Source: Welwitschia mirabilis (lineage: Eukaryota). Taken from it: a DNA stretch of 64,000 nucleotides. Position 1 is the stretch's first letter; each line of letters begins with the position of its first letter. A model generated the notes under the pieces. It was given only the letters and a program-made list of their open reading frames with translations, did not search any database and had not been told where the DNA came from. The position numbers were made by a program, and so were the translations under genes. Positions 1 through 29,397 of the stretch are shown in pieces. The stretch is from positions 20,492,059-20,556,058 of the forward strand of contig JBOZIK010000001.1 of NCBI GenBank assembly GCA_051453625.1, read 5' to 3'.

Positions 1-1075
1 CCATAACAGAGGAGTTGGGGGGAGGGGGGGTCACAGAGGACAGGACATCAGAAATCACAGAGAGATGAAGATAGAAGAGGACGGCAGAAACGCCAAGGCA
101 CAAAGCGAAGAGGATAAGACACATTACAGCACATAGGAGGAACGCCATTACGGCTAAAGACACAAAAACCATAAAACGCTTAACAGACACATAGAGGGGA
201 AGGCAGAGACTAGCGGAGGCAGATGCAGGGATGAGTACATCATCAGGGATGCAAGGCGAAACAGAGGATCAGAAGGCACAGACCAACAGAACTAGAACAC
301 GCATCGAATCACTGAGGAAAGCATCCAGAGAAGGGGGCACCATAGCGCAAACACCAAAGAGAGGCCATTCACGAGATAAAAACATAGAGAACATAGTGAA
401 CAGAGGCAATTTTTAGAGAAGGAACAACGCAACACAAAAAAAAAGAAGGAGACCAACGCAGTGAGAAATACCAGTAAAAAAAGACACATCGAAATAGTAG
501 AAAAGGGAATCGGCCAGAGAGAGGAGACACGTTCATAGAGAACGCACAGCAATAATTGCCCACCCAGAGGTGAGATAAGACGCATCAGGAAGAAGACCAC
601 CAAAAATGCGGATCAGCAGAAGATTAGAAATGCATAACGGTGAATGACATCAAAATGCCAACAAGGACAGAAATGAAGAACAGTGAGAGGAACGACGCAG
701 AAGAATGCTAATGAAATGGTGAGTGGACAACAATGGACGAGTGCAACAAAAGGCGTGCATCAAATAGCAGAGACACAGAGTTAAAAAAAAGGGAAAATCC
801 AATATGCAAGGCATCAGGGGGAATAGATCGCATGCACAGGAGGAACGACACGGAGGAATGACGGGTAAAGTCCAAAAGACGCAGGGGATCTAGAAGCAGG
901 CACCGGGAGAACGCCCAGCGAAAAAGGGCCAACGATAGAGAAACGCCCATCAAGAAGAGAAAACGCAAAGCACACCGCAGTAAGGCAGTCAATGTCACGC
1001 CGCTAGAACAGCAGCAAATCGGTAGACAAGAAATAACACACACCAGCAAGAGAAAAGTTAACAGTAAGCAAAAGC
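1..1075. other. Purine-rich, T-poor, CpG-retaining block of unknown nature (possibly low-quality assembly sequence)
   Basis: Strongly A/G-biased plus strand with no clear period and no credible ORF. Composition switches abruptly to AT-rich at about 1080. Confidence 0.5.
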
Positions 1076-2919
1076 ACCTTAGGTTTCTTTATTTTCTAGG
1101 TTCTAAAACCTTTTGTTCTTTTTTTTTTTTTTTGTCGTCTGCATTGTTTTACATTATTCCCACTTCCAAATGGCCAAATAAATCTCAAATTAGAAGCAAA
1201 TCATTTTTGTCATTTCCTTCATCTCACGACGATCTAGCGGCGTTTTATTGCTCTGCAAATTTCGAATTACATTCACATCTTTCTTAATCTCAGCCGGATC
1301 TCTGAAAATGTAGACCCATTCATTTCAATTGCAATTCGATCAATTACTTGTAGCAATTGTTATTATATAGTTCTTTTTGCTTACCCTTGCACACGCGAAT
1401 TACTATTTTCAAAGTATCTCTATTAAACTAAAAGATTTTACATGTTCTTCTCCCCTATAAAATCCAACCTATTTTATTATTTAATTTTATTTGCTTCATG
1501 CAACAAGATTCATAAAAAAAAAAAAAAGATATATTAGATTTAAATTTCCTTTTTAATGTCTCTAAAGAAAGCATTCTTTCTTAATTCATAAACTTTGGCA
1601 TCTTGTTTTGTTGGAAGATTTGATGATCCAAATTTCACGTCGTATAACGACAACATTCATATAAAGATATATTCATAATCTATATTTTTCATTTGGATAT
1701 AGTTTTCCTTTGGGTACTTCAGCTATCTCAAAAAATACTTGTTATAGAGGCATTATTATTGTATATCCTCATAACCTTCCAAACTTATAGGTTTAATTAA
1801 AGATTCAAAATTCTTATGTGAGTTTTTTGGGTGCACATTAAGTATTAGTTTATTTTTTATTTATTTTCTATTTTAAAAAAAGGTCTTTATTTTCCCTTAT
1901 CGTAGAATGTCTATGTTTTCCCATATTAAGGAATATTTTATTGCCCATTAATAAGGCACACATGTTAGGAATATCTTCATCCTATATGAAGGATATGATT
2001 CTTTTCATTACGATCATTTAATTCATTCTTTAATTGTTTTTAATACAATTGTAAGTCTATATTTTTTATTTATCCTTTCTTTCATTCTCTTTACATGCAT
2101 TTTTACCTTCTAATCAAGCTAGTAATAGTGATTATATGTTTTTACCTTAAAGATAAAGAAGACAATACTTGGAAATCTCAAGTCTTTAGAGAAATCAAAC
2201 TATAAAATATTAAGTTGTGTAAGTATGCCTTTCATCTCATCTAGATGAAGGTTTAAGTAACCACATTCTTTTAACTTACAACTAAGAGTCTTATTTAGAA
2301 TATAGAACATATTCATACAAGAGGGTTTATCATGCCATGATTATAAAGGGTATAATAATGATATTAAAGTTAATATGGTATAAAATCTTATAATTCTAGA
2401 AAGGGCATTACTATAAGATGAATAATAAAATATTAGAAATAGTATGATTGTCATGAAAAATACATAAAATTAAATTGGTCATTAATGTTATAATAAAATG
2501 GTTTTGGTGTCAAATTTAGTAATACCCCTATTTTGTTCTAATAAGGCATCTGCTATGTCACTCTAGTTTGTATTAAAAATAAGGTAGAGTCATATCATAT
2601 CATTTCGTAGCTCATAATATTTCTTGCAGAAAATACTTTTTTTTTTTTTTTGGAGTTAGTCTCCATGAAATATCCTTAATTTTTCTTTAGATTTTGATTC
2701 TACAATTTTCTCTAGCAATTTAAAAATGTTTATATGTTTGGGCTTCATTTGCTATAATACATTTGTTTTTTTCTTAATCATCAAAATTAAAAAGGAGGGC
2801 GTACTATTCTTATGGTTCAAAGCTTATAGCTTTTGAGAATATCAATATGTATAATTCTATATCCTCATTAGCCACTGTGTCTTTTTACTTGAAATTTTCT
2901 AATTTCAACTAGTTCACAA

Positions 2920-3800
2920 ATTTGAAACCATATGTTTGCAGCTCATGGGGTTATGTCTATCAAGATCATATAAGAATTATTTTTCTATGAACTATTGCCT
3001 ATTATTATGTTTACTTTATTCATGCATTAATACTAGTATATCTTCAAAATAATTTAGCCTCACCTTTTTATAGCTTGTGGCTCATAGCATTTTTAATACT
3101 GATCCTTGTTAATAGACTTATCTCTCCTAGTCACAGTGCTCTTTTTGCTAACATCATGAATATTTTAATCTAAGAAATGGAGCCCATACATTAATGGCCC
3201 ATGACTCATGGAATCCTCAACATAGTAGTATATGCAAGACCTTATTCCTATTGGCCATCATTTTTATTTAAGAAATGGAGCTTATTTTTATGGCTTATGG
3301 TGTGCAGCATTTGATATATCGACTATCATCTATAGTTTTATACCTGTCATCCACTGTGCTATTCTAGTGTTATGAATATAATAATTTCAGGAATTGAGCC
3401 CATGAATTCATGACTCGTAGCTCACAACATCTTGAATAGAGGAGCTTATAAAATATCCTATCCCCACCATCTACCATTTATTACCACTTCTATAAGTTAT
3501 TTGGTAAATCAGGCTTACACCTTCATAGCTTACCCCTTGTAGCATTTGGTATATTAAATATCATCTATAATCTTGACCTATCACTCGTCACATGGATTAA
3601 ATAAATTAGGTTCCTATCCTTAGGCTTGTGGCTATTGGTATTTGAGTTGTAAAATCAACTATATATGTTATCTTTCATGACCCACTACTTCTATCTTTAA
3701 TTTAAGGAATCTTAGACTTTTGTACTAATCTTATATCATGCCTCATGGCCTACAACTTTTATTAAGATAATCAATCCCTACACATATTTTTCCTTCATCC
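2920..3800 (+). repeat. Degenerate tandem array, unit about 100-120 bp
   Basis: A recurring motif like agaaatggagcc...tcatg(a/g)ct(c/t)(a/g)tggc..(a/g)gcattt appears near 3050, 3172, 3270, 3390, 3505, 3602 and 3705. Confidence 0.55.
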
Positions 3801-4099
3801 ATGATATACTTGAGAATTCATTTAAACTATTCCATTTATGAATTTCTAAAGATGACTATCATTCTTTTAAAGTATAATAGTTTTATTTAAATTAACCCTT
3901 ATTAATGTTAAAGGACTAATTAAATGAGCTTAACTTATCATATCAATTTGGATTATTTCTATCTAGTTAATTCAAGACAAAACTATTATCCTAAGCTAGG
4001 AAATTTAAATTCAAAACTATAGGCAGGTTAAAATATATTTAATGCTTTTCTTTTTACAAACCGTTGCTAGAATCAGAATCTCATTTTTCATTTTTAGCT

Positions 4100-7050
4100 C
4101 ACAGAATTATTCTTGATGGTTTCTAAGGATGTTTTACAAAGGCCCATGCATAAGTATGTAGAATTAGATAACCATCTATTAAAAATGCATTTTTTTCCTA
4201 GAATCATTTTCAAGAATGTGTTGCTAGTCAAAGAAATGTATGAGCTTCAATTTCCTCACTCTCATTCTTCAAATTCTGATCTTCTTCCCTCTTTGATTTT
4301 AGGATTTGAAGAAGCTCAGAAAATTAAAACTGCTAAAGAGTTCAAAGCTTTAATTACAGAAAATGATTTATAGTTACTAGTCTTTCACTAGTTCCCTAAT
4401 TTTTACTATGAATTTTTCTATAATCTGGAAAGAAATTTAATATACTTATCTTCTAAAGCTATGGTTCATTTTATTACAACTACTACATATTAAATCTATG
4501 ATGTTCTAATTCCTTTAGAAATCGATGAGTTTTCCATTGATAATGCTCACTATCACTAAGGGACTTTCCCAAAGAAATCTAGAATTTTAATGGATCCTAT
4601 TTAAAAATTTGGGGTTTTAAAGGTAAAGACTTCAAACAGCACCCCAGGTAGCAAGCTATGTATCTTGGAATGCTGTGTTATTTACATGGCCTATCAATAA
4701 CCATGGATAGTTAGATGATCTATGATTGATTTTCTATGAATAATGGGCTACCTTTTCACCTCACATAAGCACTCAACTATAGGCTTTTCCAAGAATTCCA
4801 ATAGTAATATGGGGTAGGCCCACAATATAAGTTTGGTCTCACATCCTGAATTATCAATTATATTTTATTTCCTTAAAGGATAATTGTATCAAAGAATGTA
4901 CCAAACTACATTTAACTACTGCTTGCTTCTTAGGGATAATTGTCTTGGATTGAGGAGATTTTTCTTATTACATATACAATGAACTTTTTTGATTTCTAGG
5001 TAAATGAACTTAACATGAATTTTTTTAACCTATATCTATTTTTTTTTTAATTTTCAATAAAAAGAAGTCTAGATTAGCACTAGAAATTATAGATAGAATA
5101 CAAAGCAATTTCTTTTTTGGTTGTGTTTATTTCCACTTTAATTTTATTGTAATTCATGTTACTAGGGTCAAAATTCCATCCAAAATGATGCCCATATTTG
5201 TTACATCATATCTTTGCATGTTGGATGCATTCAAACTATGATAGAATGTTAGAAATAAGTTATCACAATAAAATACTATGATATTAACCTAGTCTTCTCA
5301 TATTAGAGATTGGTTTTGTAGTGGTATAGTAATGATGGATAGATATCTAAAAAAGCTACATATCTAGCTTATCCATTCTATGCCAGCAAGGTCTTTAATG
5401 GAGGCACTCAAATTAAATTGCCTAAGCCTGATTTCATACATAACAAATATATTGACGACGAGCTCTATTTTGGATATAGAGATGATTTGGAAGTAGAAAG
5501 AAAGAAATGAGCATTTGTAAATTCAAATCCTTCTCTAGGAGCTGAAGTCTCTAAGCCCGTCAATTATTCACATCCACAAGCCCTGAAGCCGATAGAAGTT
5601 TCGAAATCAATTCTCTAGTTTCCAATGAGTGAATAAATTTACTAATTCAAGGAGATCATTTAAGGGCTATTACATTAACAAATCAAGCTTAATGTCCCTT
5701 TACTAATAGTTCATCTTTAGTAGCCAAATTTCAAGAAGAAGGTCTAGATTTATACCTTTTAGTTTTTCTAAAAAGAAGTCTAAAGGAAATCAGACAACAA
5801 ATACCACTGCCTGCTATAGAGGAAGTGGGGACTTACTCCTTGCAAATTTAAACATCAATGGAGTTTCCTCCTCCTCTGCCCCTTATTGATTTAAAGAAGG
5901 GTTTAGTTAAAATTACAATAAGAGGATTATATTTTTTAATTAAAGACCTAATGTCCTTGATTTTGAAGCAAAAATAAGATAGATGTAACTCTAAAAAAGT
6001 CTTATATAGATGTAAGAAACAAAGGTCCAATTGTTCATGGTAATTCGTTGATGACCTATTATCTTATATAAAGAATTCTTGTTAATTGTTCTCTATGATA
6101 CTAAGAATATCATAGAAGAATGATCTAAGGATAAGACAGACCAATAATGGCTACATGTTATGCTAGAGGCTGAAAGAATAGACCTGCATGCCATCTCCTT
6201 AGAACTCCCAGCATTAAAAGGTAACATAAAAGTAATGGATGTTGAGATTAATAAATTAAAGCTAAAATCATAGTAAAAAAAGAATTAAAAGCTAAGTATC
6301 CATATTATTTAAATATACAAAAAGATATTTTGAGGTGGTTTATCTTTGAAGTAGAAAATAGCAAGTCTGAGTTAATGTTTCTTAAAGAACAACTTAGTCA
6401 TAAGGGTACAAAGATCTTATCCCTAAAGATTCAATCCAACTCCTTTGTAAATTAAATAATGATCTTTGGGAGTAGCTTTAAAAAAAGGAGCAATATATTA
6501 AAACTCTTATAATCTTATGCCTCAATTTGAATCAAATTTTGAGTAATTGGTAAAAGTTACACTCACATCTCATTTCGTTATCTGATCAGTTACATACCTT
6601 TTCAGCAAACATTAGTTTGTAGCTTAATACTATAAAATCAATCATTGAAAAAGCTAAGTTAATATTAGAAATTATTATTTAATCTTTAAAAATGATTATG
6701 GTTGGCACCACTGAGGGTCATAATAAAAGGATAATCTCCTTATTTAAATAGTTTAATGAAAAGATAATTGTCAAATTAGTCCTAACAAATGTAGATATCA
6801 CAAATTCCAATCATTTATTAGAGGCATTTAAATGTTGTCTTAATTTATAAACTTCAATTCTTGATATAAAGGCTTAATTCTTAATGTCAGTACTTTGCCT
6901 CTAGAATATTTGCAAGATATAAGGAATGTGGTTAAAGACATTACTACCTAGCTTCATGAAGTTATTATATAAGCATAAAAAAATTTGAAGGACCTTTAAC
7001 AAATTAATTTTGATAAATTTAAAGAAGATGAATTGATTTTTCTTAATCAA
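4100..7050 (+). pseudogene. Decayed extra ORF of a Tat-like retroelement (N-terminus resembling plant retroelement accessory ORFs, C-terminus coiled-coil-like)
   Basis: ORF 4113-4373 continues through a stop into FPNFYYEFFYNL, which resembles the EFY.NL motif. The region 6150-7000 is K/E/L-rich and heptad-like (ELPALKGNIKVMDVEINKLKLK). Many stops and frameshifts. Confidence 0.45.
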
Positions 7051-7194
7051 GTATAACAATGACTTTTATTTAATTTTATATACTAAATGAACCCCAAATA
7101 ATTATATCTATAATTGGTTACACAATTGTCAACTAGTTCTTAACCAATTTTGCCTATTACAAATATATATTATAATGACATTAAAAAAATGGAA

Positions 7195-7785
7195 TGAAGA
7201 TTTTTTTAGAGAACTATCATAATGAAAATATTTCTCATTTTTTTGAATAATCTAATTAAGTGCTTACATAAATTTTTGGGCATTTGGTCTTGCTAATAAA
7301 ACTATCATTATAAAAGTTTTGTAAGTTTTCTAAACAAGCTTTTAAACTACTACTTAGGTTAATTGAATTGTCTACTATTTTAATTTTAATGGTTCTTTAT
7401 TACTTGCATAATGATTAATTTTTTAAAGTGAAAAAAAATCTTATCTATCACTAGTATATAACTCTAAGACTCATTAAAATTGTAGTTAAATGAATTTTGT
7501 GTTTTATTAGATTTATTTACTCTATGAAAGTTTTATAGTTTAAGATCCTCCTATTATTACTAGAGTCAAATTAGTTATTTAAATTATTATTAATTATCTT
7601 TAATACATCTTGGATATAATTCTTTAGGATTTATTAATCTTAATCATTAGTTCTACCAAGCTATTAGAAAAGTTACTTGTACTTTAGGTTCTAACCTATG
7701 AAACCACCATTGTGAACTTTAAAATAGTGATCATTGTTGATCATTTAGTGTTATAATTAAAGAATGAAAATTTCATGAACAAACA
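7195..7785 (+). repeat. Probable Tat-element LTR (TG...CA)
   Basis: Starts tgaaga after the purine tract aaaaaaatggaa and ends aacaaaca immediately before a PBS-like motif. The left boundary is inferred because no partner LTR was found. Confidence 0.5.
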
Positions 7786-7789
7786 TTTT

Positions 7790-7807
7790 TGGCACTAGAA
7801 CAAGGAT
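7790..7807 (+). promoter_or_regulatory. Primer-binding site, Tat type (degenerate TGGCGCTAGAAGGAGG)
   Basis: ...aaaca tttt tggcactagaacaagga, followed about 200 bp later by gag-like coding sequence. Confidence 0.6.
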
Positions 7808-8188
7808 GGGATTTTGTTTTCTTAGTGTATGTTTTTTGCCTCTTCAAATTCATAATTAATACAAAAAGATATATACCAAAATTCTTAGATACCTTTTACC
7901 CTAAATATTTTTTTGAATGCCCCTAACCAAATTATTACCTATAGAATATCTAACAAGTTAAATCTCCCTATTGACCAAAAGTCTCTTTTAACTCATAAAT
8001 ATCAAGGAAGAAGGGTCATGGCTAATCCCCTTCCTCTTGTTGGAATGGTACTTTAAATTTTCAAACCTTTAATCCTATTCCTAAGAGTGTAAAACATTTC
8101 CTTCTTGAACTATTCTATCCTACCAAGTTTATCATTCTAAAAGAATTTATGAAGGCTTTTAAATCTTAATTTAGTTCTTAATAACTAC

Positions 8189-9776
8189 TGTCACATCTAG
8201 ATTTTTAAGATCCAATATTCTAAATAATTCTTAATGTTATAAAGCCTCTAGCTAATTTAATTATTGCATGTATTTATGTTTTGACGTAAGTCATGTAATT
8301 TTATCTTTAAAATTTTGTGCTATAATTCCTCACATTTTGTACTAGTCATAATATTACCTTTGTTGAAAATTCTTAGTGATCCAATTATGATTCTATAGTT
8401 GTTAAATTATTGTAACTATCACACTTATATCTATTTAATCTAGAAAATATCTTTTATGTGATTTTTGTACATTACTTATTATTATTGCATGATAAGCATT
8501 GTTATTTACTGCTAAGATATTAATGCACCCAGTGGCCTGGTAAGGAATTGAATAAGGGTGTTACAAAATTCCTACCACTTTCAGCACCATAACCACCCTC
8601 CTTTATGATGAGATCTTTTCATATTCTTATGTCCTTTCATATTCCATGTCCTCAACTATAAATAAGATCCTCTTCTCCTTTCATTTGATATCTTGAGAAG
8701 CCTTTGCTATCAAACCTTGGAGCTTCAATAAGCCTTGAAACCTTAGAGCCTTAGAATTTTTAGAGTATTATGGTTTTATAATCTTCATTTTATTCTTGTC
8801 TTGTTCTTGATTTTTCATTTGTTTTCTTACATGGTTCTTATCTTGTGCATCTCAAATAACCTTTATTTTTGAATGATTTTAGTATTCATGTAATTCTTAT
8901 AAAGTTCTTGCATATTGATAAAGTTTGCATTCAGACTACATACACCCCATGTTAGTATTATCTTAGGTACTTTACATCATAATCATTCCCATCTTGTCTA
9001 AGTATTATGATGATTTGTTGATTTGACTTGTTTGGTTTTCGACCTTGGCTAATGATTTTTAGATAAAACTAAAACTGGCTAAGGTAACCAGTTATTTGAA
9101 CTTTAGAGAGTGATACTCTCTAAAGAAAGTCCTAAGGCCATGGGACCAAACTTCTAGGATGAATAGAAAAAATGCGACTAATTTACCATTTGTCCCTCCT
9201 GGATTATGTGCAACTGGATTACCAAATCTGTTATGGAGTAATAATTAGAAAAGTGATAAGCTCAAAATGGAGTCTTAATCATTGCTGATTTATTTTCATT
9301 ATCCCTTCTTTACTTGAGAATCCCTTTTCATTCCATACCTTATCATGGATCATACTAAGAACTATGTAGGTTACAGTTCTCACACCATGTTATTTATGTT
9401 TAGTAAGTGACTGAGTGGAACATAGTAAAAGCTAATTTACCTTACCAAGGAAGGCATTTTAAATGTTGATTTTCTAGCTTATGCATTAGAATTTATTAAA
9501 ATGGAGAGATTTTTCATCATTATAACTTATAATTTATTATATCTTGTAGTTGGTCTTTGACATATAATGATTCTTGAATTATCTTGGAAATAAGAAGTAT
9601 TTATTTTCTTGTGTATTTAAACATTATGTAACTTATTTATATCCTTTACCTATAAAAGTTACTTATAAATGTATTTTGTATGCATTTAGATTGATTTAAG
9701 AATTGTTGGCTTAAATATTTAATAAAAGTATTCATGAAAGTTTAAGCTTTAAGTTATGGAAAACTAGAATGTTACA
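8189..9776 (+). repeat. 5' LTR of Tekay-like element
   Basis: tgtcacatct...gaatgttaca, colinear with 14869-16576. Confidence 0.92.
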
Positions 9777-9779
9777 TTT

Positions 9780-9791
9780 TGATATCAGAGC
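9780..9791 (+). promoter_or_regulatory. PBS (initiator tRNA-Met type, degenerate TGGTATCAGAGC)
   Basis: tgatatcagagc, 3 nt after the LTR end. Confidence 0.85.
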
Positions 9792-10489
9792 ACCCTAGGT
9801 TACAAATTCACTAAGAGTAATCATTGTAAGGACATATACATTTCAACATTAAAGCCTAGGTTGTGGTTTCACTGGGTATAATTGTTGTAAATCTATTATA
9901 AGTCTTAGCATTAAGATTAAGAATTCATAATGTGTGCTTATTGAATTAGTAGAATTAGTAGAGTTACATAGGTAATAAGATCCTTCTCTTCTATTTTGGA
10001 TAGAAATTCAACATATTCTTGTCTTCCACATGGATGTCCATTAATTTGATATTTTAGTTTTATATCTAAAATTAAGTCCTCAAACGTATGAAGGAACTAA
10101 TAGCCGTGTTACAGATCTTGATATAGAGAGGCTAATAATAATTTGAAGGTTGATACATTTTACCATTGACTAGGATTTGCACAAGATAGTTTTCATTAAA
10201 AAACGTTAAAAAGATAAGAGTGAGACTCTAAAGTTTTTATGATTTAGCATTATTTGTCTTTGCAATAAGTGATTTTTATAAATAAGAAGTATAATGAGAA
10301 AGGCTAATATCAAAGGAGTTGCAAATAGCATGTGTGTGAATAACAAAAAAATCTTTGGAAGTTTTATAAAGTTTATACAATTTAAAAAATAACTATAAAA
10401 ATGAGAAACAAGGATCGCTTAGAGGAAACAAAGTCACAGCATGTAACTTACATCATTAGCATTACCAGTCAATGAGCTAAAATAAGGCT

Positions 10490-10970
10490 TCAACCTCTGC
10501 GACTTAATCCAGATGGCATTAAGCTCATCCTTACCATCATATAAAAACTGAACAGAATTTTCTACTGTCCTATTATAGTAAGCCATAACATCTTTCATTA
10601 CCTTAACTAATCTTCTCTTGATGTAACCTCTTTTTATAGTTTTAACTATTGTATCAATAAGCTCTTCTTGGCCTTCCATGGTATGGAAGAAGAACTCCTA
10701 CAAAGTAAGCTCTTTAGAATTTTTCAATAAATCCTCAGCTCTCTGAATCCTTATTATCTTAGATGAAATGGAAGATTCTTATCATGAAAACCATAGTGAA
10801 TTCATTTCCCTTTAATGTTTTATTAACTGATATAGGTTGTCATCTGAGATTCATTGATGAAACTTCTTTGGAATCTACTGTAATCATTGCCCTTAGATTA
10901 CACTTGTCCAACAAGCTTTTCTATGCAAAGTTCGTACATTATCTCGAGCCTTATTCAAAAACCTACTCAC
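10490..10970 (-). pseudogene. NRPB1: Captured fragment of RNA polymerase II largest subunit (funnel to bridge-helix region), decayed
   Basis: The minus strand reads VSRFLNKARDN..KSLLDKCNLRAMITVDSK..SFINESQMT..NIKGK*IHYGF..ES*GFIENS..LTL*EFFFHTMEGQEELIDTIVKTIKRGYIKRRLVKVMKDVMAYYNRTVENSVQFLYDGKDELNAIWIKSQRL. This is colinear with RPB1 [88 protein letters not shown]. Confidence 0.93.
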
Positions 10971-11129
10971 AAAGAAGCCCTAAAAGTAGATTTATAGTTA
11001 TAAGATCCATCTAAATATAATGTCCAACATTTTGCCATTTGTTTTTAATCGCTCAAGTTATTAAGAGAAATAATGGTAAAGATTGAAAGAGAGTGATTTT
11101 AATCAAGGAAAGAAAATAGGGCCATTTTT

Positions 11130-11700
11130 TATTTTAAGTAACAGTTCAAACAATTCAAGCCTTCCACCACATCCCATGTAAACTTCTGTTGCTAGCGATA
11201 ACCTTTACCAGCAAAGTCTTCTTAGGAATTCTAGCCTCCTTAACATAAAATTCTCTAATAGTTTTGAGCTCTATGATGAAATTCTTAAGAGTGGAATTAA
11301 ACCCAATGTCAGAACTTCTAGGACTATGATAAATGCCTATTGCAATAAAGAAAACATTGATAATGCTGCAAAACTATTTGAAGAATGGATATCATAGGTT
11401 ATTCACTCAATGTAGTGGCTTTTAACATTCTGATTAATGGTCCTTACAAAAAGATTTTTCTTAAGAAGGCATTGGAATTAAAGAAAACACAAAATGTGTG
11501 TATTAAGGTTTTTACCTAGTACTTTCACTTACATCATTATAATTAATGCTTTTCGTAAAGGTAAGAGATCTTAAGAATACAAGTTTACTAATTTAGAACA
11601 TGTCATCTAGAGAATTGACTTTTCATGTTGTTACCTTTAATTCTTAATTGAAGGCTTTATAGAAAAGGTGATATGGACAATGCTTTATAGATAGATGAGC
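11130..11700 (+). pseudogene. Captured pentatricopeptide-repeat (P-class PPR) gene fragment, about 4 repeats, decayed
   Basis: FELYDEILKSGIKPNVRTSRTMINAYCNKENIDNAAKLFEE / GYSLNVVAFNILINGPYKK..ALEL / STFTYIIIINAFRKGK / HVVTFNS-LIEGF..KGDMDNAL, with frameshifts and about 35-aa spacing. Confidence 0.88.
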
Positions 11701-14700
11701 AGGGCCCTTTTCTCTTGTGATAATCCTAGATATCCATCATGATGAGTTACTAGAAGATCCTTTTTAAAAAGATTCTATAATAATCCTTGCAATACCTCCT
11801 ATTGGTATTGACTTATTTCTTGTTCTGATAAGTTTCCCTATTTTATAAATGAGGTGTTGGAAATGTCAGTTATCATTTAATTTCCTTGATCTGTCTGCTC
11901 TTTATGTAGTAAACAATTCTTTAGCTGGGTAGTACAATTTTTAAGTATTTATTCATGCATGCGATTGATTCCCTTCGGTAGTTAGAAATAGCCATTTCCG
12001 CCTCCCCTCCATTCCCCACCCCCCTTTGGAACTATGCATATCTATGTAGCCTTCTTACTTGTTTATAATTTACCTTGCTTACATTGCTACTCTTCAGATG
12101 CTTGAATTATAGAAGGATTTTCATCTCTTTTGGCCTTTTTCTCTATTTATCCTCCCTCTTCTCTCCCGCTCTTGCTTTCTCAGTGCCTGTGCTTCCTACT
12201 TTTTCTGCTATTTAGAGATAGTAATCCAATGCACCAATAGCCAGATTTCTTTTTTCTTTCTTTTAGAAATCAAACTAGAGTGTCTTAAGCCTAAAGAATT
12301 GAGGGTCAATCCCAAAGTGCCACTATTATAAGTCCTAAAATATTCTACTCTGAGGAACTCTTTCCTCTCCAAATTGAAACAATCAATCCTTCTTTACATT
12401 TAGGGTAAATAAGTTTGAATGAAGAACATATCTTCGATTAGAAAATATGCTAGCACAAAGAGATTAGTAGATACCTAACTATAATTTAATGCATTAGGCA
12501 CAGAAGTTTGGCTACATTTGAAGCATGATTGAGAAGCATGTTTAGCTAAATGATACGTCATGCTTACTTAATAGTAGGTTAAATGACCTTCACAGATTAT
12601 GAAAATTATTAGCTCATCTAATACTAGTTTTGGCTAAGATCTAGCTATACAAAGGGTCAATGGTTTAAAATGGTACATCCATAATGACTTTAAAGATGGT
12701 TGAACTAGCTAATGGTAAACCTAGTCCCAGTTTTACTCCTATTGATCCTTTAAACTATTTAATATAAAGGTGTTATAAGTAGTGGTATATGTCTTTGGAA
12801 AAGGATGATTTTCATAATTTATAAAGAGAAGAATGTTGCATCTAAAATTTATAGATGTTGAAGGACATTTGAATTTAGAAGGAAAAGTTATTTAATTACT
12901 CATCTTTACAACAAGTTAGTTTCCAAGTAATACTTTATGCAAGGTGATGACTTGGCTTTTTAAAAAATAAAAGATTACCTTCTTGTTAATATGTGTGACT
13001 CATGTATTCTCAATGTTTTTTGTAATGTAAGTAGAAACTAACATTTAGATTTTATTTTTGGATGTTTCTTATCAATGAATATTTATTTACTAAATGTCAT
13101 TTCCACTAATAAGATATTACATTCCTATTTAATTTTCTTTCAATTTAAGAACAATTAGAACCTAGATGGTCAGACCAACAAAGGGTAAAATTTTAATTTA
13201 TTATGTCTTAGTTCATAGGTAAAAATAATTATCTTATTACATTTCATCTCCTAGAATAAGATTTAGCTATCTATGCTTCTAAATAATGCACTTCTAGAGC
13301 ACAAAGTAATGGGTCATTCAACCATTTCTAATCACTTAACATCTAAATAAATGAGTGTTGAAGATTCTTCTACTATTTTTTAATACCTTAGCATTTTAGA
13401 TCCTGTTTTATATATTAGGAAGTTTGAGCATTATGAACAGAAAGCTAATACCCTTACATAAAGGTCCAGAATCAATAGCAAACCTTTGTTGACTAATACA
13501 CAATAAAATTATGTCATTAAATGTATTTAAATGGGATGATAAGGGTTTAACATAAATCTAATATTTAATTAAATGATTAGGATTGCAATGTATCTTGATC
13601 ATTAAGAGAGTCTTTCAGCCAAGCTAAATAAATCATAGAATATATGATGCCTTTTTCCATGTTCTTGAAGGTTCCTAATTAGTATGCCTTAGATGATCAT
13701 GTAATGCTAATGTGTTTGACTTTGCATTTTCCTTTCACTTTATCTTACTTCACTTTAACATAGATTTGCATTTCAAGTATTCATTTGAAACTTCTATATC
13801 AAGTCCAACTTATCACCAATTAGAGCACTATTGATCTTTTTAAGAGAGGAAGGTTAATGATCACTTTAGCAATGTAGGATACACAAATCCTTGACTTCCT
13901 AATTATGTAGTTATGATTCAATCTAAAATGTTTTGATTCTTGAATCTAAATGATTACTCTCTGTCTAGTATTCATAACATAAAATGATTATAGTATATGA
14001 GTTTTTGAGCTTCTTGAAAGTATTATAGAATTAAAACTAGCATAGGAAGGATTCGACTCTTTTAAATTATAGCTCTCTATAATTTTGTACTAGCTACTTT
14101 TATAGGTTTACTTTCATTTCCTATATAATTTGTTTGGTTTGAAATTGCATGATGATCTAAGCAGCAAGAGGCTTAAGCACAACGCTCAAAATAAAAGAGT
14201 GTAGACTGAAAGAGAATCACAATTTATAAGCTTAGGTTTGAAGAATTTATACATAACATCTTAAAAGGATGAGCGTCATGATCTAGAGTAAGAGATTGTT
14301 GTGTTACAATATCTGATTTTTTCAATTTGGATTTAATAGGCCAAGCGTATTTTGATTTTGGTCGAAGCAAGAAGATTGTTAAGATATTTTGTCTTTCAAT
14401 CATCTAGAAGCATATTCAACTATGTTCTTAAAAATTCCTTGCAAAATCAATTATGTGGTCTTAATCCAACCTCCCATGAATATATGCTAGTTCATAACAT
14501 TTTCCATAATCAAGTAAGCTTTATAACCTTAGAAAATGGGAAAGATTAAAAGTTCATGTATAGAAAAATCACTTTCATAAACTTTGACGTTGATATACAT
14601 ATATAATACAACTTTTAGAGCACTTAATATGAAGTAAAGTGAAGGGTAGAGAAATAATAATTTCCAGAGGCTTCCTCATTCCAAATACAAGAGATGATTT

Positions 14701-14854
14701 GTGTTATCATGATGACTAATTAGCAAGCCTTTATATAAATTTTCCAACAATTTAATTTGCGTTGAAGGAAGATAATTTCAACTTGGTAAGTACAACGATT
14801 AGGGGAATATAAAATAGATGTATTGTAGCTTAAGTTTCAAGGATGAAACCTCTT

Positions 14855-14868
14855 AAGGAGTGGAGTAA
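14855..14868 (+). promoter_or_regulatory. Polypurine tract of Tekay-like element
   Basis: aaggagtggagtaa immediately before the 3' LTR. Confidence 0.8.
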
Positions 14869-16576
14869 TATCACGTCTATATTTTTAAGGTCCAAGATTC
14901 TAAATAATAATTAATGTTATAGAGCCTTTAGCTAGTTTAATTATTGCATGTATTTATTTTCTGATGTAAGNNNNNNNNNNNNNNNNNNNNNNNNNNNNNN
15001 NNNNNNNNNNNNNNNNNNNNNNNNNNNNNNNNNNNNNNNNNNNNNNNNNNNNNNNNNNNNNNNNNNNNNNTCTAAATAATAATTAATGTTATAGAGCCTT
15101 TAGCTAGTTTAATTATTGCATGTATTTATTTTCTGATGTAAGTGTGTAATTTTATCTTAAAAATTTTGTGCTATAATTCCTCACATCTTGTACTAGTCAT
15201 CATATTACCTTTGTTAAAAATTATTAGTGAACTAATTATGATTCTTTTGTAGTTAAATTATTGTAACTATCGCACTTATATCTATTTAATTTGAAAAATA
15301 TCTTTTATGTGATTTTTGGAAATTACTTGTTATCGTTGCATTATGAGTGCTAAGATATTAACTTTTACCATCATAACCACCCTCCTTTGTGATGGATCCT
15401 TTTCATGTCCTTATGTCCTTTAACATTCCACATTCTCAACTATAAATAAGACACTCTTTTCTTTTCATTTGGTATCTTGAGAATCCTTCTCTACTAAATG
15501 TTGGAGCTTGGATAAGCCTTGGAACCTTGATGCCTTGGAATTTTCATAGTCTTTGAATCTTCATTTGTATTCAGGTATGATTTTATAGTATTCATTTCAT
15601 TCTTGTATGGTTCTTGGCTTTTCATTTATTTTCTTACATGACCCTTATCTTGTGCATCTTGAATAATATTTATTTTTGGATGACTTTTGTATTCATGTAA
15701 TTCTTGTAAAGTTGTTCTTACATATCAATGAAGTTTGCATTTATACTACATACATTATCTTAGGTACATTACATTGTAACCCTTTCCATCTTGTCTAAGT
15801 ATTGTGATGATCTGTCGACTTGACTTGTTTGGTTTTTGACCTTGATTGATGACTTTTAAATAAAAAAACTAAAACTGACTAGGATAATCAATTTTTTAGA
15901 CTTCAGGAAGTGATACTCTCTGAAGGGAGTCTTGAGGCCATGGGACCGAACTTCCAAGATGAATAGGAAAAATGTGACTAATTTACCATTTATCCCTCCT
16001 AGATTGTATGCAACTAGATTACCAAAATCTATTATGGAGTAATAGTAAAAGAAGATAAACTCAAAATGGAGTCTTGGCCATTTTCATTTATTATTGTTAT
16101 TCCTTCTTCACTTGATAACCCCTTTTCATTTCATACCTTATCATGGACCATACTAGGAACTGTTAAGATTAAAGTTCTCATACCATGCTATTTGTGTTTA
16201 ATAGGTAGTTGAGTGGAGCATAGAAAAAGCTAATTTATCTTGCCAAGAAGGGCATTTGAAATGTTGATTTTCTAGCTTGTACATGAGAATTTGTTAAAAT
16301 GGAGAGATTTGTTCATCATTGTAACCTGTAATTTATTATATCTTATAGTTGACCTTTGATATATGATGATTTTTAAGTTATCTTGGAAATAATAAGTATT
16401 TATTTCCTTATGTATTTTCACATTATGTGAGTTATTTATCTCTTTTACCTATAAAAGTTACTTATAAATGTATTTTTGTATGCATCTAGATTTATTTAAT
16501 AATTGTTGGCTTAAATATTTAATAAAAGCATTTGTAAAAGTTTAAGCTTTTAGTTGTGAAAAACTAGGATGTTACA
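14869..16576 (+). repeat. 3' LTR of Tekay-like element (contains a 100-N gap with duplicated flanks)
   Basis: tatcacgtct...ggatgttaca, colinear with 8189-9776. Confidence 0.92.
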
Positions 16577-18444
16577 ACTACCTATGAACATGTTGTGTGT
16601 AGATGTTTCAGTCTTTTATTGAAAGTAGAAGCTGGTTATTAGTTTTTTTAATCTTCTAAGTGGTTGTATTTCCTTTTATAGCAAATTTAAGTCTAAGTTT
16701 TTTCATAGATATGATGGCTAATATAATTCACAAGATTTGTTAACTTTCCTATTAACTTTGAGGCATAACCCTCAAGAACATGTAAAAATTCACAATTATA
16801 GATTTCTTAGACTATTCAATCTGATAAACAACATCCTAGAATCTACTGACTGAGCTCTTTAAATTATCTACTTAAATTCATTAGTACTATAGCTTTTAGT
16901 TTTAGTGAGAAATGATAATTTAGTAATTCCCTTAATAACTACAATGAAATTTCTTCAAGGGATTATACTTAGATATATCCATTTAAGGTTTTATTAATCT
17001 TTTTCATAGTACTATAATAATTTATCTTGAATACCAAACCAAACATTAAGTATTTACCTTTAACATCATCTATTCCCTCTTCATCGTCTGATACAAAAAT
17101 ACTTCCATTGCTTAAAAATATATCAAACCAACTATAAAAATTAAATCTTAATAAAAAGTTTTATTCTATTAAGAAGATTGGAGAAAAATCTATTGAAAAG
17201 GCAGTTATCATGAATACTAAAAGTTGTCTTTTATAAGAATATTCAACAAAATAAGATTTTAAAGAAGAAAAATGTTGTGCTTATTTTGATGATATTTGAT
17301 TCATATTATGAATTAGATAGTGATGTATTAGAAAGAGAAAATTCTAACTCATTTATTTCCTATTCTTATCAACTTAGTTATGGTTTCTTTGAAATTTAAA
17401 GTGAATTAGACTCAGATTCTAATAATTAAAGAAATGTTACTAAACCCATCATTAGCTAAGTGTAATTCTAACAACTATGAACTTAGATCAAAGAAAGAAG
17501 AACCAGTTACATACCCCATCCCATCTAATATTATTTCATCATCAAGCATTATTAAGAAGCCTTTTGAACCTAAAAAAAATACTACATCAATGAAGAACAA
17601 AAAAATAAGTAAGTGTTAGTTTAATGCCTCAAAATAATATTAAAAATAACTCAAGAAAAGAAGAGGGTAAACAAATAACACCCTATTATATTTGAAAGTA
17701 TATCTTAAAGCCTAAGGCGTATTATGTACTAGATGGAGGTTCTAAATATGACATCAGAGAATACCTAAAAAAAGTTAGGGCTAATATTAGCTTTTATTAA
17801 TTGCTTAGTATGATAAGATAAAAGAAAAAATTACTCAATGCTCTGAATTACTTAGAATGTAAGTTACACATGAATCAAATAGAAAATCATACTATTACTA
17901 TTACAACTTCTAAATCCACTTTAGATAATCAGAAGCCAAACAAGATGAATCTCTTCTTATTGACATTATTAATGGGGAAGATTTTCCTTCATAATTGTAT
18001 TCTAGATGCTAAAGCTTTAGCAACTCTTATGCTCTTTTCAGTTTTTTAGAAAATAGGACTAGCCCTAGAAAACTCCCCATATAATGTAAATTAGATCAAT
18101 AAATCTAAAGTTAAAATTATAAGCCAGATTAATAATGTTGTCTTGGAAATGGTAAAAGATCCTAGAATTTCTAGTATAATGAACATTTAAGTCATTGATT
18201 TCCCAGTTGTGTATAGTCTAATTTTAAGTAGAAATTAAATGAAAACTATTAATGGATATTTAGCCATAGATCTTTCTAATATGTGGATTTATTTTAACCA
18301 AATACTAAATGAAATATTAATACATAATAAGCCTTATATAAAATACTTAGTTGTTAACTCTGTTAATTCATTTAATGGCATCTGTACTATCACTGAAGAA
18401 TTATATGAATTTGGACTAATTCCATTTTATCCCTTTCTGAGGCA

Positions 18445-18820: not shown

Positions 18821-20454
18821 AAATATGGAGCAAGATATACATTCTTATTCTAAACTATTTTTAGGGGGGAAAAATCTATGAACTATCAGCTTTAGATAAT
18901 ATATAACATTCATAGGTTTTCAATTTATAATATCAAATATAATAGTTTCTCAATAACTCACATGTATTTGAAGATCAATGTTTGGAAGAATCAGATCATA
19001 GTCAAAATAATATCTTTAATGATGTTTCAATATCTTCAGTTTTAAATACAATTCCAATATGACTATTAAACCTCGAGTATGATTTCTTTTAGAAAAATTT
19101 TACAAGTACTCTAGAGATTTAATCATAAATTTCTATTGATACAAATAAGGTTAACTTATTATATGGTCCACAAAAATGAAAGGAATTTAACATTAACACT
19201 TCTACATCATTAACATTTTAAGTTCATTTAGTTGAATTACTACAATAGTATAGAGATGTATTTGCTTAAACAGATAAGGATCTTAAAACCTTCAATCATA
19301 AAACTATAATCCATTAGATTTTGATTAATCTAGGACTTGAACCATTCATCTAGAAGTTAAGAGTTATTAATCCTAAGATAGAGCTTGTTATGTATGAATA
19401 ACTTAAAAAACTTATTTAGTCTAGCATAACATATGCTATCAATTATACCATGTGGTTTGTAAACCTTTTTATAGTATGTAAAAAGAGTGGTAATATTTGG
19501 TTTTATGTCAATTTTAGAAACTTAAACCAATCCTTCATCGAAGATTAATATCTATTACCTAGAATTGATGAAATTATCTAAAGAGTTTTAGGATGTGAAA
19601 TCTTTTCTTTTTTAGATGTATTTTTAGGATACAACTAGATATTAATACATAAGGAAGATCAGATTAAGATTGCTATTATTACAAAATGAGGAATGTTCAC
19701 TTACAAAAGTATGCCTTTTGAATTATCAAATGTTAGGATAAATTTTCAAAGAGTTATGCGCAAAACTTTTTAAGATATTGTAAATTTCTTTATAATAGTT
19801 TATTTGGATGATATAACTATATACTCACAAAAGAAAACTAATCATGTTTCACATCTTAAAATAGTGTTTAACCACTATAGAGATTTTGGGATATCTCTTA
19901 ACCCAAAAAAAAGTATCTTAAACTTAAAGTTAGATATCATACTTAAGCATTGCATTTTCATATTTGGAGCAATCATAAATCCATATAGAATTAAGATGAT
20001 AAGATAATTACAATTTATAAACTCAAAGAAAGCTTTAAGATCATTTTTGAAAAAATTAACTTTGTCAAGAAATTCATCCCTGAAGTAACCAAACTATTAT
20101 AATAAATGATCAAACAAAATCAAAAGGTTAAGAAAAATCTAGAAGCATATGCTATCTTTATATCATTTATTAGGTTTATTAATCAAGCTCCTATTTTATT
20201 AGCCCATGATTTTATCAAGGATTTTTTCTTACATGCTGTTGGTTCTTATGATTCAATTACGTCACTACATATATTAAAGCAAGTAGAATAAGACTTCTAA
20301 TTTCGTTTTTTAGTACAATACTTAAAGAAGCATAGTTAAAGTATATTAAATTAGAAAAACACACATGACTTCATAAAATATGTTCAATATTTTAAATATT
20401 ATATTTATTCAAACAAAATATTTTTAATAGTATTTCACCCTATGATCAAGAAAA

Positions 20455-21893
20455 TGATAGGATCGAGAACCCTAGGGGTGGAGCTGAATAGGTTCTTTTA
20501 AAAAGATGCAACACAATATTCTAAATGAATCCAATCTTAAATAAAACTTGCATACAATAATTAACTAATTTAAAATATGCATGAAAATAGGAAAATAATG
20601 GAAGTAAAGAAATAATGACTGAAAGTACAAAAATACCAAATGGATGCAAGCCAGATTTATAGTGGTTCAGGAAATCCCCTACTTCACTCTCAACAATTAG
20701 CTTATTTCCAAGCAAGATCTTGGATCTTCATTACTCCACCAGGTATTTCAAGTTTACCTGTAACCTTTACAAACAGACTTTTCTAGGCTTAGTCTCAACA
20801 TTTGAATAGATTTTTCAAGGCTTAGTCTCAATCTTTCACAAATCAAAGTAGTGATGGAATAATGCCAACAAAGCATGGATATCACTCATTCTTAATTGAG
20901 TATATTTGGTGGAGCTCTTCTCCTATGGATGTAATGAATAAAGCATAGGATCTAACCTTAAATGTACAGATGATACACATGATAGATCTTCTTTGATCAG
21001 AAGTATAGATACCAAGATAAAATAGTAAAAGTTACAAGATTACAATGCTTGATCCTTCAGATCCAATATATTCACCCAATTAAAAATATTCCAAAAGATT
21101 CTTGGGTTATCTATGCCTTAGCTATCTATATTGGAAGGCTTTTAGGGTTTATTACATTTGAAATGCGCTTCTAGCGATTATAAACAGCTAGAAAATGGCT
21201 ACTTAATGACTAAATAATGGATACATAACAATTAGAAAATTTTACTTCTGTTTGGTTTGGTCGACCTCTCAAAAGTCCGATCGACCCCTCAAAAGTTCAG
21301 TTGACCCCATCTGGTGTCGTGACTTACACAGGTCGCTCGAGTGAGAAATTCAATCACCCAAATTTCTTACGGTTCCTTGTCCGACCAACTCCATCTAGGT
21401 CTAGTTAACCCCAATCTAGATCCCTTTAAATGTCCAATCAACCCCATGATGATTGGCTCAGGTCAACTACATAGTGCTTAGGTCCGATTAACTCCATCAT
21501 AGGTCTAGTTAACCCCTTGACAATTAGTTCAAGAGTAATATTCCTTAGTTCATAGATCTAGTCGACCCCATCATAGGTTCGGTTGACCCCTTGTTATTTA
21601 GTCTAGGGATACTATTTATCAGGTCCTCAAATCTAGTCAACCCCATAAAGATCTAGTTGATCCTTGTCATTCAATTTAAGGATACTAGTTCTTGAGGTTA
21701 CAAGTCTTGTTCACCCCTTGAAAATTTAGTCGACTCCTTAAGAGGTTAAAAGAAATAACAGGTTCTAGTGTTCAGAAGTTGATGATTTTTGTTCCATCTT
21801 TCGACCTACAAGTAATTTAACATCTTCTTCATAAGATACACAAAATTTGCTATATAAAAAACATTAGTTTGACATCAATTGACAAAACATAAT
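20455..21893 (-). repeat. 3' LTR of SIRE-like element (its inner end recurs at 24060-24119)
   Basis: tgataggatcgagaacc...gatgcaacacaatatt is colinear with 29398 onward. Confidence 0.85.
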
Positions 21894-22590
21894 ACAATAG
21901 AGAAAACCTATCTCTACACTCATGAAAATAAATGACAAGATTAATATTAATTTAAATGACAAGGATGTAGATACAAAGCTATATAGAAGCATGATTAATA
22001 GTCTCCTATACCTCATAGCAAGTATGTGAACATTACCTTTGTTGTTAAATTATGAGTTAGGTACCAAGCTAAACCAAAGGAATCTCATTTATGTGCTATG
22101 AAAAGGATGTTAAGTTATGTAAATTCTATTCTAGACTATGGAATTTGGTTTTATAAAGATTTTAATTTACATTTATTAGCATATTATGATGCCAATTGGA
22201 TTGGCTCTAGAAATGATAGAAAACATAATAGTGGAAATTATTGCTTTCAAGGCTCATGTTTTTTAATTAGGCTTGTAAGAAAAAAATATCTATTTTTTTA
22301 TTCATTACTAAAGCTAAATATGTATTAGTCAATAGTTATAGAGCATATGTTTATGATTCATTATGCATTAAAGGATCTAAATATTAATGAATTAAATACT
22401 TTCATCTCTTATGATGACTTTAGTGCTATTAACATCGTTATAAGGCTAGTCTGGCACTATATAACTAAACACGTAGACATCAAACATCATTTCATTCATG
22501 GTCATGTAGAAAATCATGACATCCATGTTGAATTTATCCCTTATAAACAACAAATTTTTGGAATTTTTATCATTAATTTTTTATGAAAAA
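21894..22590 (+). pseudogene. Second copia RT C-terminus/RNase H fragment in opposite orientation
   Basis: VDTKLYRSMINSLLYL, YQAKPKESHL, AYYDANWIGSRNDRKHNSGNYCF, TKHVDIKHHFIHGHVEN. Confidence 0.88.
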
Positions 22591-27700: not shown

Positions 27701-27790
27701 TCTATTTTTGCTCTTCCATTTTCCCCAAAAGTCACCCCTCCTCCATCAAAGTTGTTTAGTTATTTGAATCTAGATTTCTCTCTTGTCANN
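24740..27790 (-). pseudogene. Copia pol remnants (PR, integrase, RT, RNase H)
   Basis: [95 protein letters not shown]. Confidence 0.93.
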
Positions 27791-29384
27791 NNNNNNNNNN
27801 NNNNNNNNNNNNNNNNNNNNNNNNNNNNNNNNNNNNNNNNNNNNNNNNNNNNNNNNNNNNNNNNNNNNNNNNNNNNNNNNNNNNNNNNNNNNNNNNNNNN
27901 NNNNNNNNNNNNNNNNNNNNNNNNNNNNNNNNNNNNNNNNNNNNNNNNNNNNNNNNNNNNNNNNNNNNNNNNNNNNNNNNNNNNNNNNNNNNNNNNNNNN
28001 NNNNNNNNNNNNNNNNNNNNNNNNNNNNNNNNNNNNNNNNNNNNNNNNNNNNNNNNNNNNNNNNNNNNNNNNNNNNNNNNNNNNNNNNNNNNNNNNNNNN
28101 NNNNNNNNNNNNNNNNNNNNNNNNNNNNNNNNNNNNNNNNNNNNNNNNNNNNNNNNNNNNNNNNNNNNNNNNNNNNNNNNNNNNNNNNNNNNNNNNNNNN
28201 NNNNNNNNNNNNNNNNNNNNNNNNNNNNNNNNNNNNNNNNNNNNNNNNNNNNNNNNNNNNNNNNNNNNNNNNNNNNNNNNNNNNNNNNNNNNNNNNNNNN
28301 NNNNNNNNNNNNNNNNNNNNNNNNNNNNNNNNNNNNNNNNNNNNNNNNNNNNNNNNNNNNNNNNNNNNNNNNNNNNNNNNNNNNNNNNNNNNNNNNNNNN
28401 NNNNNNNNNNNNNNNNNNNNNNNNNNNNNNNNNNNNNNNNNNNNNNNNNNNNNNNNNNNNTTGACTCTAGAATTGTCTCTTACCATATATCTTGAACACT
28501 CATTATCGAGATACTAGCTTATGCTATTTGAGACCTCGAAAGTTATCTAAATTAAAAGGCTTTTAAGATCATTAGTTTTCACCCACATAATCTTTCTAGA
28601 CTTACGTGGTACACTTCCTTTAGGAATAAATTTAAATAGAAAAGTACTATCTGAGTTTGAAAACAACATTAATTTTCTAGCATTGCATATGAGTTTTGAA
28701 TGATCAATTCTTCTATAGAAATAACAAGTAACTTTTAAAAGGAACTTACCATCACTAGTTATCTAATTTTGTTGTCTTTGAGGCCTTTGAGGGATGAAGC
28801 CAATACCTGACTTGATATCAATAGATTTCTAAACTCCAAGCATCTGTTCCAATTTGGTAGATTCACTTGAAAATTCATTAATAAAATAAGTTAACTCTTT
28901 TACCTGTAGAGTGAGATTGAAATTTTTTGATTTGATTCTTTTGAAACTTGATTTCATTTCCTCCTTTTCCTTAGTGAGAGATTTTATAATCTTATTCAAA
29001 TCATTTATCCTTTTAGATAGCTTTTCACATTCCTGATATAGATCTTAATAGGTATCTTCTAACTCATCCTGTTCTTTATTATCCACATCAAGGTTATCAT
29101 GATCCAATGTATTAGGCATATTTCGTAATGGGGGCACAAGTGCCATAAAGGAAATTCTCCTTTATTTGTCATGTTTTTGAGTATTTCTTTTGTCTCTTCC
29201 ACTTGACTCCTGTGTATTCCCACTAATTTCAATCTATTTAAAAATATATCCATATGCTATCCAACATATTCAGATAAAAGAACAAGTATCGAGGAAGGGC
29301 ATATTTGAAAAATCATCAAGGTGAAAATTCATTGTGGGGTTCGAAAGTCTAGATTGGTTAAGATCTAAGAAAAGACTTAACCTA

Positions 29385-29395: not shown

Positions 29396-29397
29396 AA

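Follow-up and report, generated by a model that had tools for sequence, protein, structure and literature searches.

A solitary long terminal repeat retrotransposon copy in Welwitschia mirabilis with a private patchwork in place of its coding region

When fragments of two unrelated host genes lie back to back inside a long terminal repeat (LTR) retrotransposon, is the element a member of a family that moves with its gene cargo, or a one-off product, and how did the fragments get in? The question is raised by an element at positions 8189-16576 (+ strand) of a 64,000-nt stretch of Welwitschia mirabilis DNA (the window; assembly GCA_051453625.1, contig JBOZIK010000001.1, positions 20,492,059 to 20,556,058 of the forward strand). 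An earlier note, made from the sequence alone, had described the element as Tekay-like and suggested that it may represent a "pack-LTR" family that moved together with its cargo. Our analysis leads, with high confidence, to a different answer: 8189-16576 is a solitary, old, dead, non-autonomous copy of a very abundant LTR family, and its coding region has been replaced by a private patchwork.

Element frame and missing coding region

The frame of the element is that of an LTR retrotransposon. A direct-repeat search paired 8186-9776 with 14866-16576, and blastn and MAFFT refined the 5' LTR to 8189-9776 (+ strand, 1588 bp, TG...CA); the 3' LTR (14869-16576, + strand) starts with TA, a G>A change from TG. 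On the outer sides stand target site duplications (TSDs) read from the sequence as ACTAC, at 8184-8188 and again at 16577-16581, and identity at five of five letters would arise by chance in roughly one of 1024 cases. A primer-binding-like site, TGATATCAGAGC (9780-9791, + strand), begins 4 nt past the end of the 5' LTR; we take it to be a putative primer-binding site (PBS) for tRNA-iMet, one position off the usual motif. A polypurine tract (PPT), AAGGAGTGGAGTAA (14855-14868, + strand), adjoins the 3' LTR. Paired LTRs, a TSD of the 4-6-bp type, a PBS-like site and a PPT are what structurally defines an LTR retrotransposon, and the TSD-bounded element with a PBS that the earlier note had recognized is borne out.

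The assembly of this region needs one correction before the LTRs can be compared. Inside the 3' LTR there is a 100-N gap (14971-15070) with an identical 72 bp on each side (14899-14970 and 15071-15142), which is an unmerged contig overlap and not biology. The window as a whole comes from a gapped scaffold: it contains 11 runs of N, 7-672 nt long, none of them within 8189-14970. With the 72-bp duplicate removed from the 3' LTR, the MAFFT alignment of the two LTRs comprised 1504 sites, which were 85.6% identical, with 163 transitions, 53 transversions and a longest indel of 54 bp (p-distance 0.144; Kimura two-parameter distance [K2P] 0.163). The rice rate in common use is 1.3e-8 per site per year. 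At that rate, which may not be the rate of this host, the K2P distance corresponds to an insertion age of about 6 million years.

Between the LTRs, no coding capacity of a retrotransposon was found. All 99 stop-to-stop open reading frames (ORFs) of at least 24 amino acids within 9777-14868 (18 + 81) were compared with Pfam, and none matched gag, protease, reverse transcriptase, RNase H or integrase. The matches were RNA_pol_Rpb1_5 (one ORF) and PPR (three ORFs), besides two at chance level (MRP-L27, E = 0.12; DUF6487, E = 0.05). A tblastx comparison of the interior with the rest of the window, which contains pol and gag pieces of copia and gypsy type, gave no hits either. The "pol remnants" that had been placed between the LTRs are thus not supported. 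An RVT_1 fragment does occur at 19774-20004 (+ strand, E = 2.8e-9), about 3 kb downstream and outside the LTR pair, and may be what was taken for them. The element therefore lacks the gag and pol between the LTRs that mark an autonomous element. Because the Tekay/Del lineage is recognized by reverse transcriptase/integrase phylogeny and the chromodomain, it cannot be assigned to a copy without pol, and the annotation of 8189-16576 should read defective, unclassified LTR copy and not Tekay.

Copy number and composition of the interior

The copy-number contrast draws on Logan contigs from three DNA data sets (X1, X5 and X9) at a likeness of at least 80% to positions 7700-14970; summed contig depth cannot be read as a number of copies and serves only for contrast. 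The contigs listed are the longest of 38,378 pieces, together with 15 of 507 joints. Summed depth over the LTR bins was 1576-9526 (X1), 2544-7763 (X5) and 460-2353 (X9), and over 14261-14970 it was 2535-7609, 3287-12509 and 1400-3214, respectively. In the cargo core (10130-13531, 14 bins) it was 7.5-45.9 (X1), 10.8-54.2 (X5) and 0-61 (X9), with the contigs of the locus itself, recognized by 0-3 differences, at a depth of 3.9-7.4. Other contigs overlapping within the gene fragments numbered 1-4 (2-3 at 11531-11554 and 1-4 at 10620-10630). The core thus amounts to a few single-copy equivalents, its depth being 0-61 where that of the family parts is about 460-12,500.

Within the interior, family sequence is confined to a stretch of about 110 bp that follows the 5' LTR and one of about 600 bp that precedes the 3' LTR. 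The former is a high-copy leader (9777-9886, + strand; depth of bin 9644-9886, 2215 in X1, 3349 in X5 and 1489 in X9), and the latter a high-copy 3' internal region (14261-14854, + strand; 2535-4954 in X1, 3287-4375 in X5 and 1898-3214 in X9) that has no Pfam match and is non-coding here. Positions 9872-9954 are skipped in other family copies, as a joint present in X1, X5 and X9 indicates, and loose contig ends at 14394 and 14482 indicate that other copies differ upstream of these points. What lies between, roughly 9887-14260, is about 4.4 kb of non-family patchwork, low-copy and moderately repeated, made up of at least six segments.

At its two margins the patchwork is moderately repeated: the left shoulder (9887-10129) had depths of 122, 163 and 57 in X1, X5 and X9, and the right shoulder (13532-14260) had depths of 94-183, 86-286 and 25-96. 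Next to the left shoulder, and overlapping it, is a non-coding segment (10040-10385) without a Pfam hit that has a divergent look-alike, about 83.5% identical. It is followed by the two gene fragments (10488-10979 and 11227-11701), with a spacer (10980-11226) between them that gave no Pfam hit and had an X1 depth of 7.5-22. The remainder, 11702-13531, is low-copy DNA without an assigned identity (no Pfam hit; X1 depth, 12.5-45.9), and part of it, near 11990-12200, is CT-rich. Look-alikes at 82-83% exist for 12831-13627, in the form of two short X1 contigs, one on 12831-13293 and the other on 13212-13627.

The first gene fragment is a decayed Rpb1/NRPB1-type coding piece on the - strand, delimited by Pfam, tblastn and frame reading, and equivalent to about amino acids 720-887 of Rpb1 (numbering of P0001). 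The - strand ORF at 10437-10697 matched RNA_pol_Rpb1_5 (E = 4.1e-16), and among solved structures the match to Pol II RPB1 (E = 4.7e-15) was better than those to Pol III RPC1 (4.1e-12) and Pol I RPA1 (3.5e-9), all of which upholds the antisense NRPB1 fragment of the earlier note. For tblastn, the queries were P0001 and P0002, two full-length non-plant eukaryotic Rpb1 proteins; the protein search otherwise returned mostly archaeal A' subunits, and no named land-plant protein was among its returns from the protein collection. High-scoring segment pairs placed Rpb1 residues 811-887 at 10709-10488, residues 757-792 at 10864-10757, and residues 737-805 of P0002 at 10926-10723. Reading the frames against P0001 prolongs the homology to "LNKARD" near 10958-10941, and perhaps to 10979. 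The piece is contiguous coding sequence over about 490 bp, with no intron-sized gap, as would be expected of a spliced RNA source, and it carries two frameshifts and at least six stops. At positions identical in P0001 and P0002, 22 of 59 were changed in the window, 13 of the 22 in a way that one G>A or C>T substitution would explain; the G+C content is 32.8%, and the observed/expected CpG ratio is 0.25. A candidate splice acceptor before "EFFFH" (about 10700) was ruled out, as the tblastn homology is continuous there and a Q codon has become a stop.

The second fragment is a decayed piece of a P-type PPR gene on the + strand (11227-11701), recognized by Pfam and delimited by its look-alike contigs. 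The ORF at 11182-11394 matched PPR_2 (E = 2.1e-11), PPR_1 (7.1e-9) and PPR (2.2e-6), and weaker PPR hits followed in the ORFs at 11382-11516 and 11482-11571 (PPR_2 in the latter). Altogether it holds about 4.5 motifs across two frames, with many stops, a G+C content of 29.3% and an observed/expected CpG ratio of 0.10. The sense PPR fragment reported before is therefore present, as is the back-to-back arrangement of two unrelated host-gene pieces on opposite strands; the gap between them is about 250 bp, not the 160 bp given at first. Both pieces, full of stops and marked by C-to-T-type decay, are pseudogene scraps with no function now and should not be annotated as genes.

Look-alikes of the cargo leave the window at the edges of the fragments. 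The three PPR look-alikes listed are 82-83% identical to the window. A 924-nt X1 contig aligns to 11227-11631 only (69 other letters, 4 gaps), leaving out 391 nt on its upstream and 130 nt on its downstream side; in a 1709-nt X5 contig the alignment is limited to 11227-11701 (84 other letters, 5 gaps), leaving out 1085 and 152 nt; and an X9 contig aligns to 11267-11611 (58 other letters, 4 gaps). Two of the three begin at exactly 11227, and one of these also ends at 11701. Similarly, positions 33-383 of a 1573-nt X5 contig align to 10040-10385 (57 mismatches, 7 gaps), and no likeness to the window extends into the other 1190 nt. As the 10040-10385 look-alike and two of the three PPR look-alikes listed leave the window at a fragment edge, they look like parents or paralogues and not sibling elements. 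No second copy of any cargo junction was present among the joints and contigs listed from X1, X5 and X9. The patchwork is thus shown to be private to one locus, with no sign of multiplication, and the proposal of an amplifying pack-LTR family moving with its cargo is not supported by the contigs of these three data sets.

Independent contigs cover much of the core. Those with 0-3 differences, from three studies, span 10043-10612, 10279-10612, 10474-10917, 11251-11584, 11555-12024, 11557-12854, 12910-13433, 12916-13435 and 13927-14232. They cross the edges at 10385-10488 and at 11701; positions 10979 and 11227 are not bridged by any contig listed. To a large extent these contigs thus confirm that the inner mosaic is real. 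Runs containing 9777-14865 numbered 12, from three studies and under two organism labels; no RNA run was listed among them. X5, which bears the second organism label, has pieces of the locus within 10279-13435 at 0-1 differences over 334-520 nt, from which it follows that the chimeric copy is common to both organism labels.

On the RNA side, one RNA-seq run (X16) was mapped to the element. It placed 48 reads, 42 of them at less than 90% likeness and mostly on family parts; over the cargo bins the depth was 0 to 0.33, so that no cargo expression was seen in that run. Reads on 14261-14746 reached depths of up to 3.5 and 1.9, nearly all at less than 90% likeness. Other family copies are transcribed in the X16 sample, which does not by itself show expression of the 8189-16576 copy.

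Three smaller observations concern the element and its immediate surroundings. The leader contains, by eye, two imperfect copies of a motif of about 37 bp starting CCTAGGTT, some 61 bp apart (9794-9892). The 5' flank (7700-8185) is moderately repeated, with a depth of 109-202 in X1 and X5, so the element probably inserted into another repeat. Exact matching of 22- to 23-nt LTR words gave no match in metagenome_contigs and none in viral_contigs, and an Rfam scan of 7700-17100 (E <= 0.1) likewise gave none.

Age, edges and origin of the patchwork

The age of the cargo was set against that of the insertion. Divergence from the PPR look-alikes is 17-18% (69 of 405, 84 of 475 and 58 of 345 sites) versus an LTR-LTR p-distance of 14.4%. 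The LTRs have a G+C content of 28.5% and an observed/expected CpG ratio of 0.09, and the cargo pieces are similar (29-33% and 0.10-0.25); if all LTR transitions are counted as GC-to-AT losses, the loss per LTR comes to no more than 16.8% of its G/C sites. On these figures the cargo has decayed no less than the LTRs have, and it did not arrive as a recent secondary insertion.

Searches of the cargo edges for signs of another carrier gave nothing above chance, in agreement with the absence of terminal inverted repeats (TIRs), TSDs and poly(A) around the fragments in the earlier note. No TIRs surround the cargo, the longest inverted pair being 29 nt at 83% identity, 709 nt apart and away from the cargo edges. 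No 8-mer is common to paired fragment edges, apart from two AT-rich words that chance would explain: an 8-mer (near 9881 and 14295) and a 9-mer (10362-10370 and 11841-11849). Runs of at least 8 A or T are absent from the fragment edges as read; AAAAAA at 10384-10389, on the right edge of the 10040-10385 look-alike, is too short to be called a tail. Helitrons start with 5' TC, end in a 3' hairpin ahead of CTRR and insert between A and T; a scan for such 3' ends gave one weak candidate, at 11825, where 0.25 were expected and 22% of random sequences have at least one.

As to how the patchwork arose, we infer, with a slight and tentative preference, that it was aboard when the copy was made, through aberrant reverse transcription. 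Non-homologous template switches onto co-packaged foreign RNA, or a read-through recombinant, would have built the chimera, as in retroviral or Bs1-type transduction; it would then have been integrated once by proteins supplied in trans, with no later propagation. Such an origin is favoured because the cis ends are clean on both sides and not a residue of pol is left, because the small LTR indels (at most 54 bp) leave no other sign of kilobase-scale rearrangement, because the cargo seems at least as old as the insertion, and because about 490 bp of Rpb1 coding sequence run on without an intron. The lack of TIRs and edge duplications and the chance-level Helitron scan also help it, as does the low copy number reported for transduction-like captures (PMC7264820).

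A number of points weigh against it. The antisense Rpb1 piece weakens it, since transduced sequences are usually in sense orientation according to the available text of PMC7264820. About 3.4 of the 4.4 kb of patchwork is non-coding or unassigned, and non-coding, partly moderately repeated cargo fits genomic DNA better than mRNAs. A patchwork of at least six segments calls for either numerous non-homologous switches or a source RNA of mosaic make-up from the start, and no mosaic source locus was seen at 80% identity or more in the contigs of X1, X5 and X9. The intron-less signal may be weaker than it looks, as it hinges on the exon structure of the NRPB1 parent within amino acids 720-887. The timing argument is likewise soft, and being on board at integration is not separable from arrival soon after: GC-richer gene DNA with methylatable C decays faster than an AT-rich LTR, the look-alikes may be paralogues instead of true parents, and a carrier DNA transposon could have owned the fragments before they were inserted here. 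Lastly, the contigs listed break at about 10040 and about 14232, so that the link from core to ends comes from the window assembly alone.

Several of these points suit a patchwork put together at the DNA level after integration, which we regard as a close rival, nearly as likely. Here gag-pol would have been lost and replaced by ectopic filler at a double-strand break, or by a decayed Helitron-like carrier together with deletions. Opposite fragment orientations, mostly non-coding cargo with moderately repeated bits, its confinement to one locus, and an antisense capture that is atypical of transduction (PMC7264820, as far as its available text goes) would all be accommodated; an element this old (K2P 0.163) has had ample time, and earlier capture by a carrier DNA transposon would explain why the cargo looks older than the LTR insertion. 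Yet neither TIRs nor flanking duplications were found, and the sole Helitron-like end is at chance level; a nested insertion would, moreover, need two extra deletions that halted at its edges. Nor does later loss sit easily with LTR indels that are all of 54 bp or less, or with a complete lack of gag and pol residues although both cis ends are clean. As the cargo has decayed no less than the LTRs, replacement would have to have followed soon after insertion, or to have used DNA that was already decayed.

Two further explanations have far less in their favour than either aberrant reverse transcription or later patching. It is very unlikely that the locus belongs to a pack-LTR family or subfamily that retrotransposes with its cargo, or keeps the shoulders (9887-10129 and 13532-14260) and swaps the middle. 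The intermediate depth of the shoulders (about 25-290) could mark a small non-autonomous subfamily, the X5 contig resembling 10040-10385 begins near the same repeat edge and then diverges, and the cargo is no younger than the insertion; against this stand the low depth of the core, the absence of a second cargo junction among the joints and contigs listed, and the two of three listed PPR look-alikes that begin at exactly 11227, one ending at 11701, without the spacer. We give equally little credence to a specific form of this idea, in which the shoulders would mark a subfamily of a few tens of copies with the same ends, whose middle was repeatedly exchanged for host DNA, the present locus being one product. 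If it were true, such a variable-cargo subfamily would qualify as a genuine Pack-LTR system, one that also makes antisense captures, for which classical transduction offers no explanation. Most improbable of all is an assembly chimera, in which the low-copy core and the high-copy ends would not truly be adjacent. The gapped scaffold with its 11 N runs, the unmerged 72-bp overlap in the 3' LTR and the breaks of independent contigs near 10040 and 14232 are compatible with it, but 8189-14970 is free of N, orientation, PBS, PPT and matching TSD are coherent, and parts of the core are covered by contigs of three studies that differ from it at 0-3 positions.

Relation to known systems and to other elements in the window

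Several classes of element and of rearrangement share traits with 8189-16576. Non-autonomous LTR elements of the LARD, Dasheng and BARE-2 type keep LTRs, PBS and PPT without gag or pol and, if they move at all, are mobilized in trans; their non-coding interiors are common to many copies, whereas the interior of 8189-16576 is low-copy and private, which sets it apart from them. With Pack-MULEs, Pack-CACTA elements and Helitrons it shares back-to-back fragments of unlinked genes, in either orientation, within non-coding DNA. Unlike in Pack-MULEs and Pack-CACTA elements, the cargo is without TIRs or edge TSDs and is bounded by LTRs and a 5-bp TSD, and no Helitron end above chance was found at the Welwitschia cargo. 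Filler DNA, or "gap patching", at plant double-strand breaks likewise gives single-copy mosaics in which short pieces of unlinked loci lie either way round; a filler of 4.4 kb that takes the place of precisely the entire coding region would be unusually long.

The closest parallel is the maize LTR retroelement Bs1, which transduced pieces of three host genes (PMC13317346). Like Bs1, as it is described in the available text of that source, the Welwitschia copy is LTR-bounded and TSD-flanked, carries more than one unrelated host-gene fragment in place of coding capacity, and exists in its cargo form at low copy number. The Bs1 fragments are in sense orientation and form a hybrid ORF that is transcribed and translated (PMC13317346, PMC7264820); by contrast, the Welwitschia copy has one antisense fragment, stops in both fragments, no ORF and no expression seen. 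Transduction-like captures are reported to be present in one or few copies (PMC7264820). In maize B73, 425 intact LTR elements with gene fragments derive from at least 189 captures (PMC2774510), so that most captures are present in one or few copies. The elements of that survey are, like 8189-16576, structurally intact LTR elements with host fragments; in the available text of PMC2774510, none has more than one gene under the survey criteria, and 8189-16576 has two. Captures by LTR elements number 672 in rice and 1343 in sorghum (cited in the parts available of PMC13317346 and PMC7264820; survey PMC3726574).

Gene-carrying LTR copies are thus already known and Bs1 shows the principle; the two-gene case described here may be regarded as a tidy example, and its significance beyond annotation is slight. 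Whether plant LTR elements pick up antisense or non-coding DNA at the time of reverse transcription or later is left unsettled in the available text of PMC13317346 and PMC7264820.

Elsewhere, the window is AT-rich, repeat-rich, plant-like DNA, with a G+C content per 2 kb of 0.21-0.39. A second LTR-like pair (20485-21288 and 29427-30229) is 81-87% identical and about 8.94 kb apart; within 20485-30229, copia-type matches lie on the - strand, namely RVT_2 at 25597-26061 (E = 9e-44) and gag_pre-integrase at 27285-27497. A TMF_DNA_bd hit at 28832-29044 is sub-threshold (26 bits versus a cut-off of 35) and may be coiled-coil noise or a host scrap. Further downstream, repeat pairs at 42434-42728 and 51707-52039, and at 44126-44637 and 52528-53019, surround a gypsy-type gag at 45585-45932. 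The same region holds a 330-amino-acid open frame (46764-47753) that belongs to no Pfam family, and a 1.85-kb tandem duplication (47280-47867 and 49140-49717).

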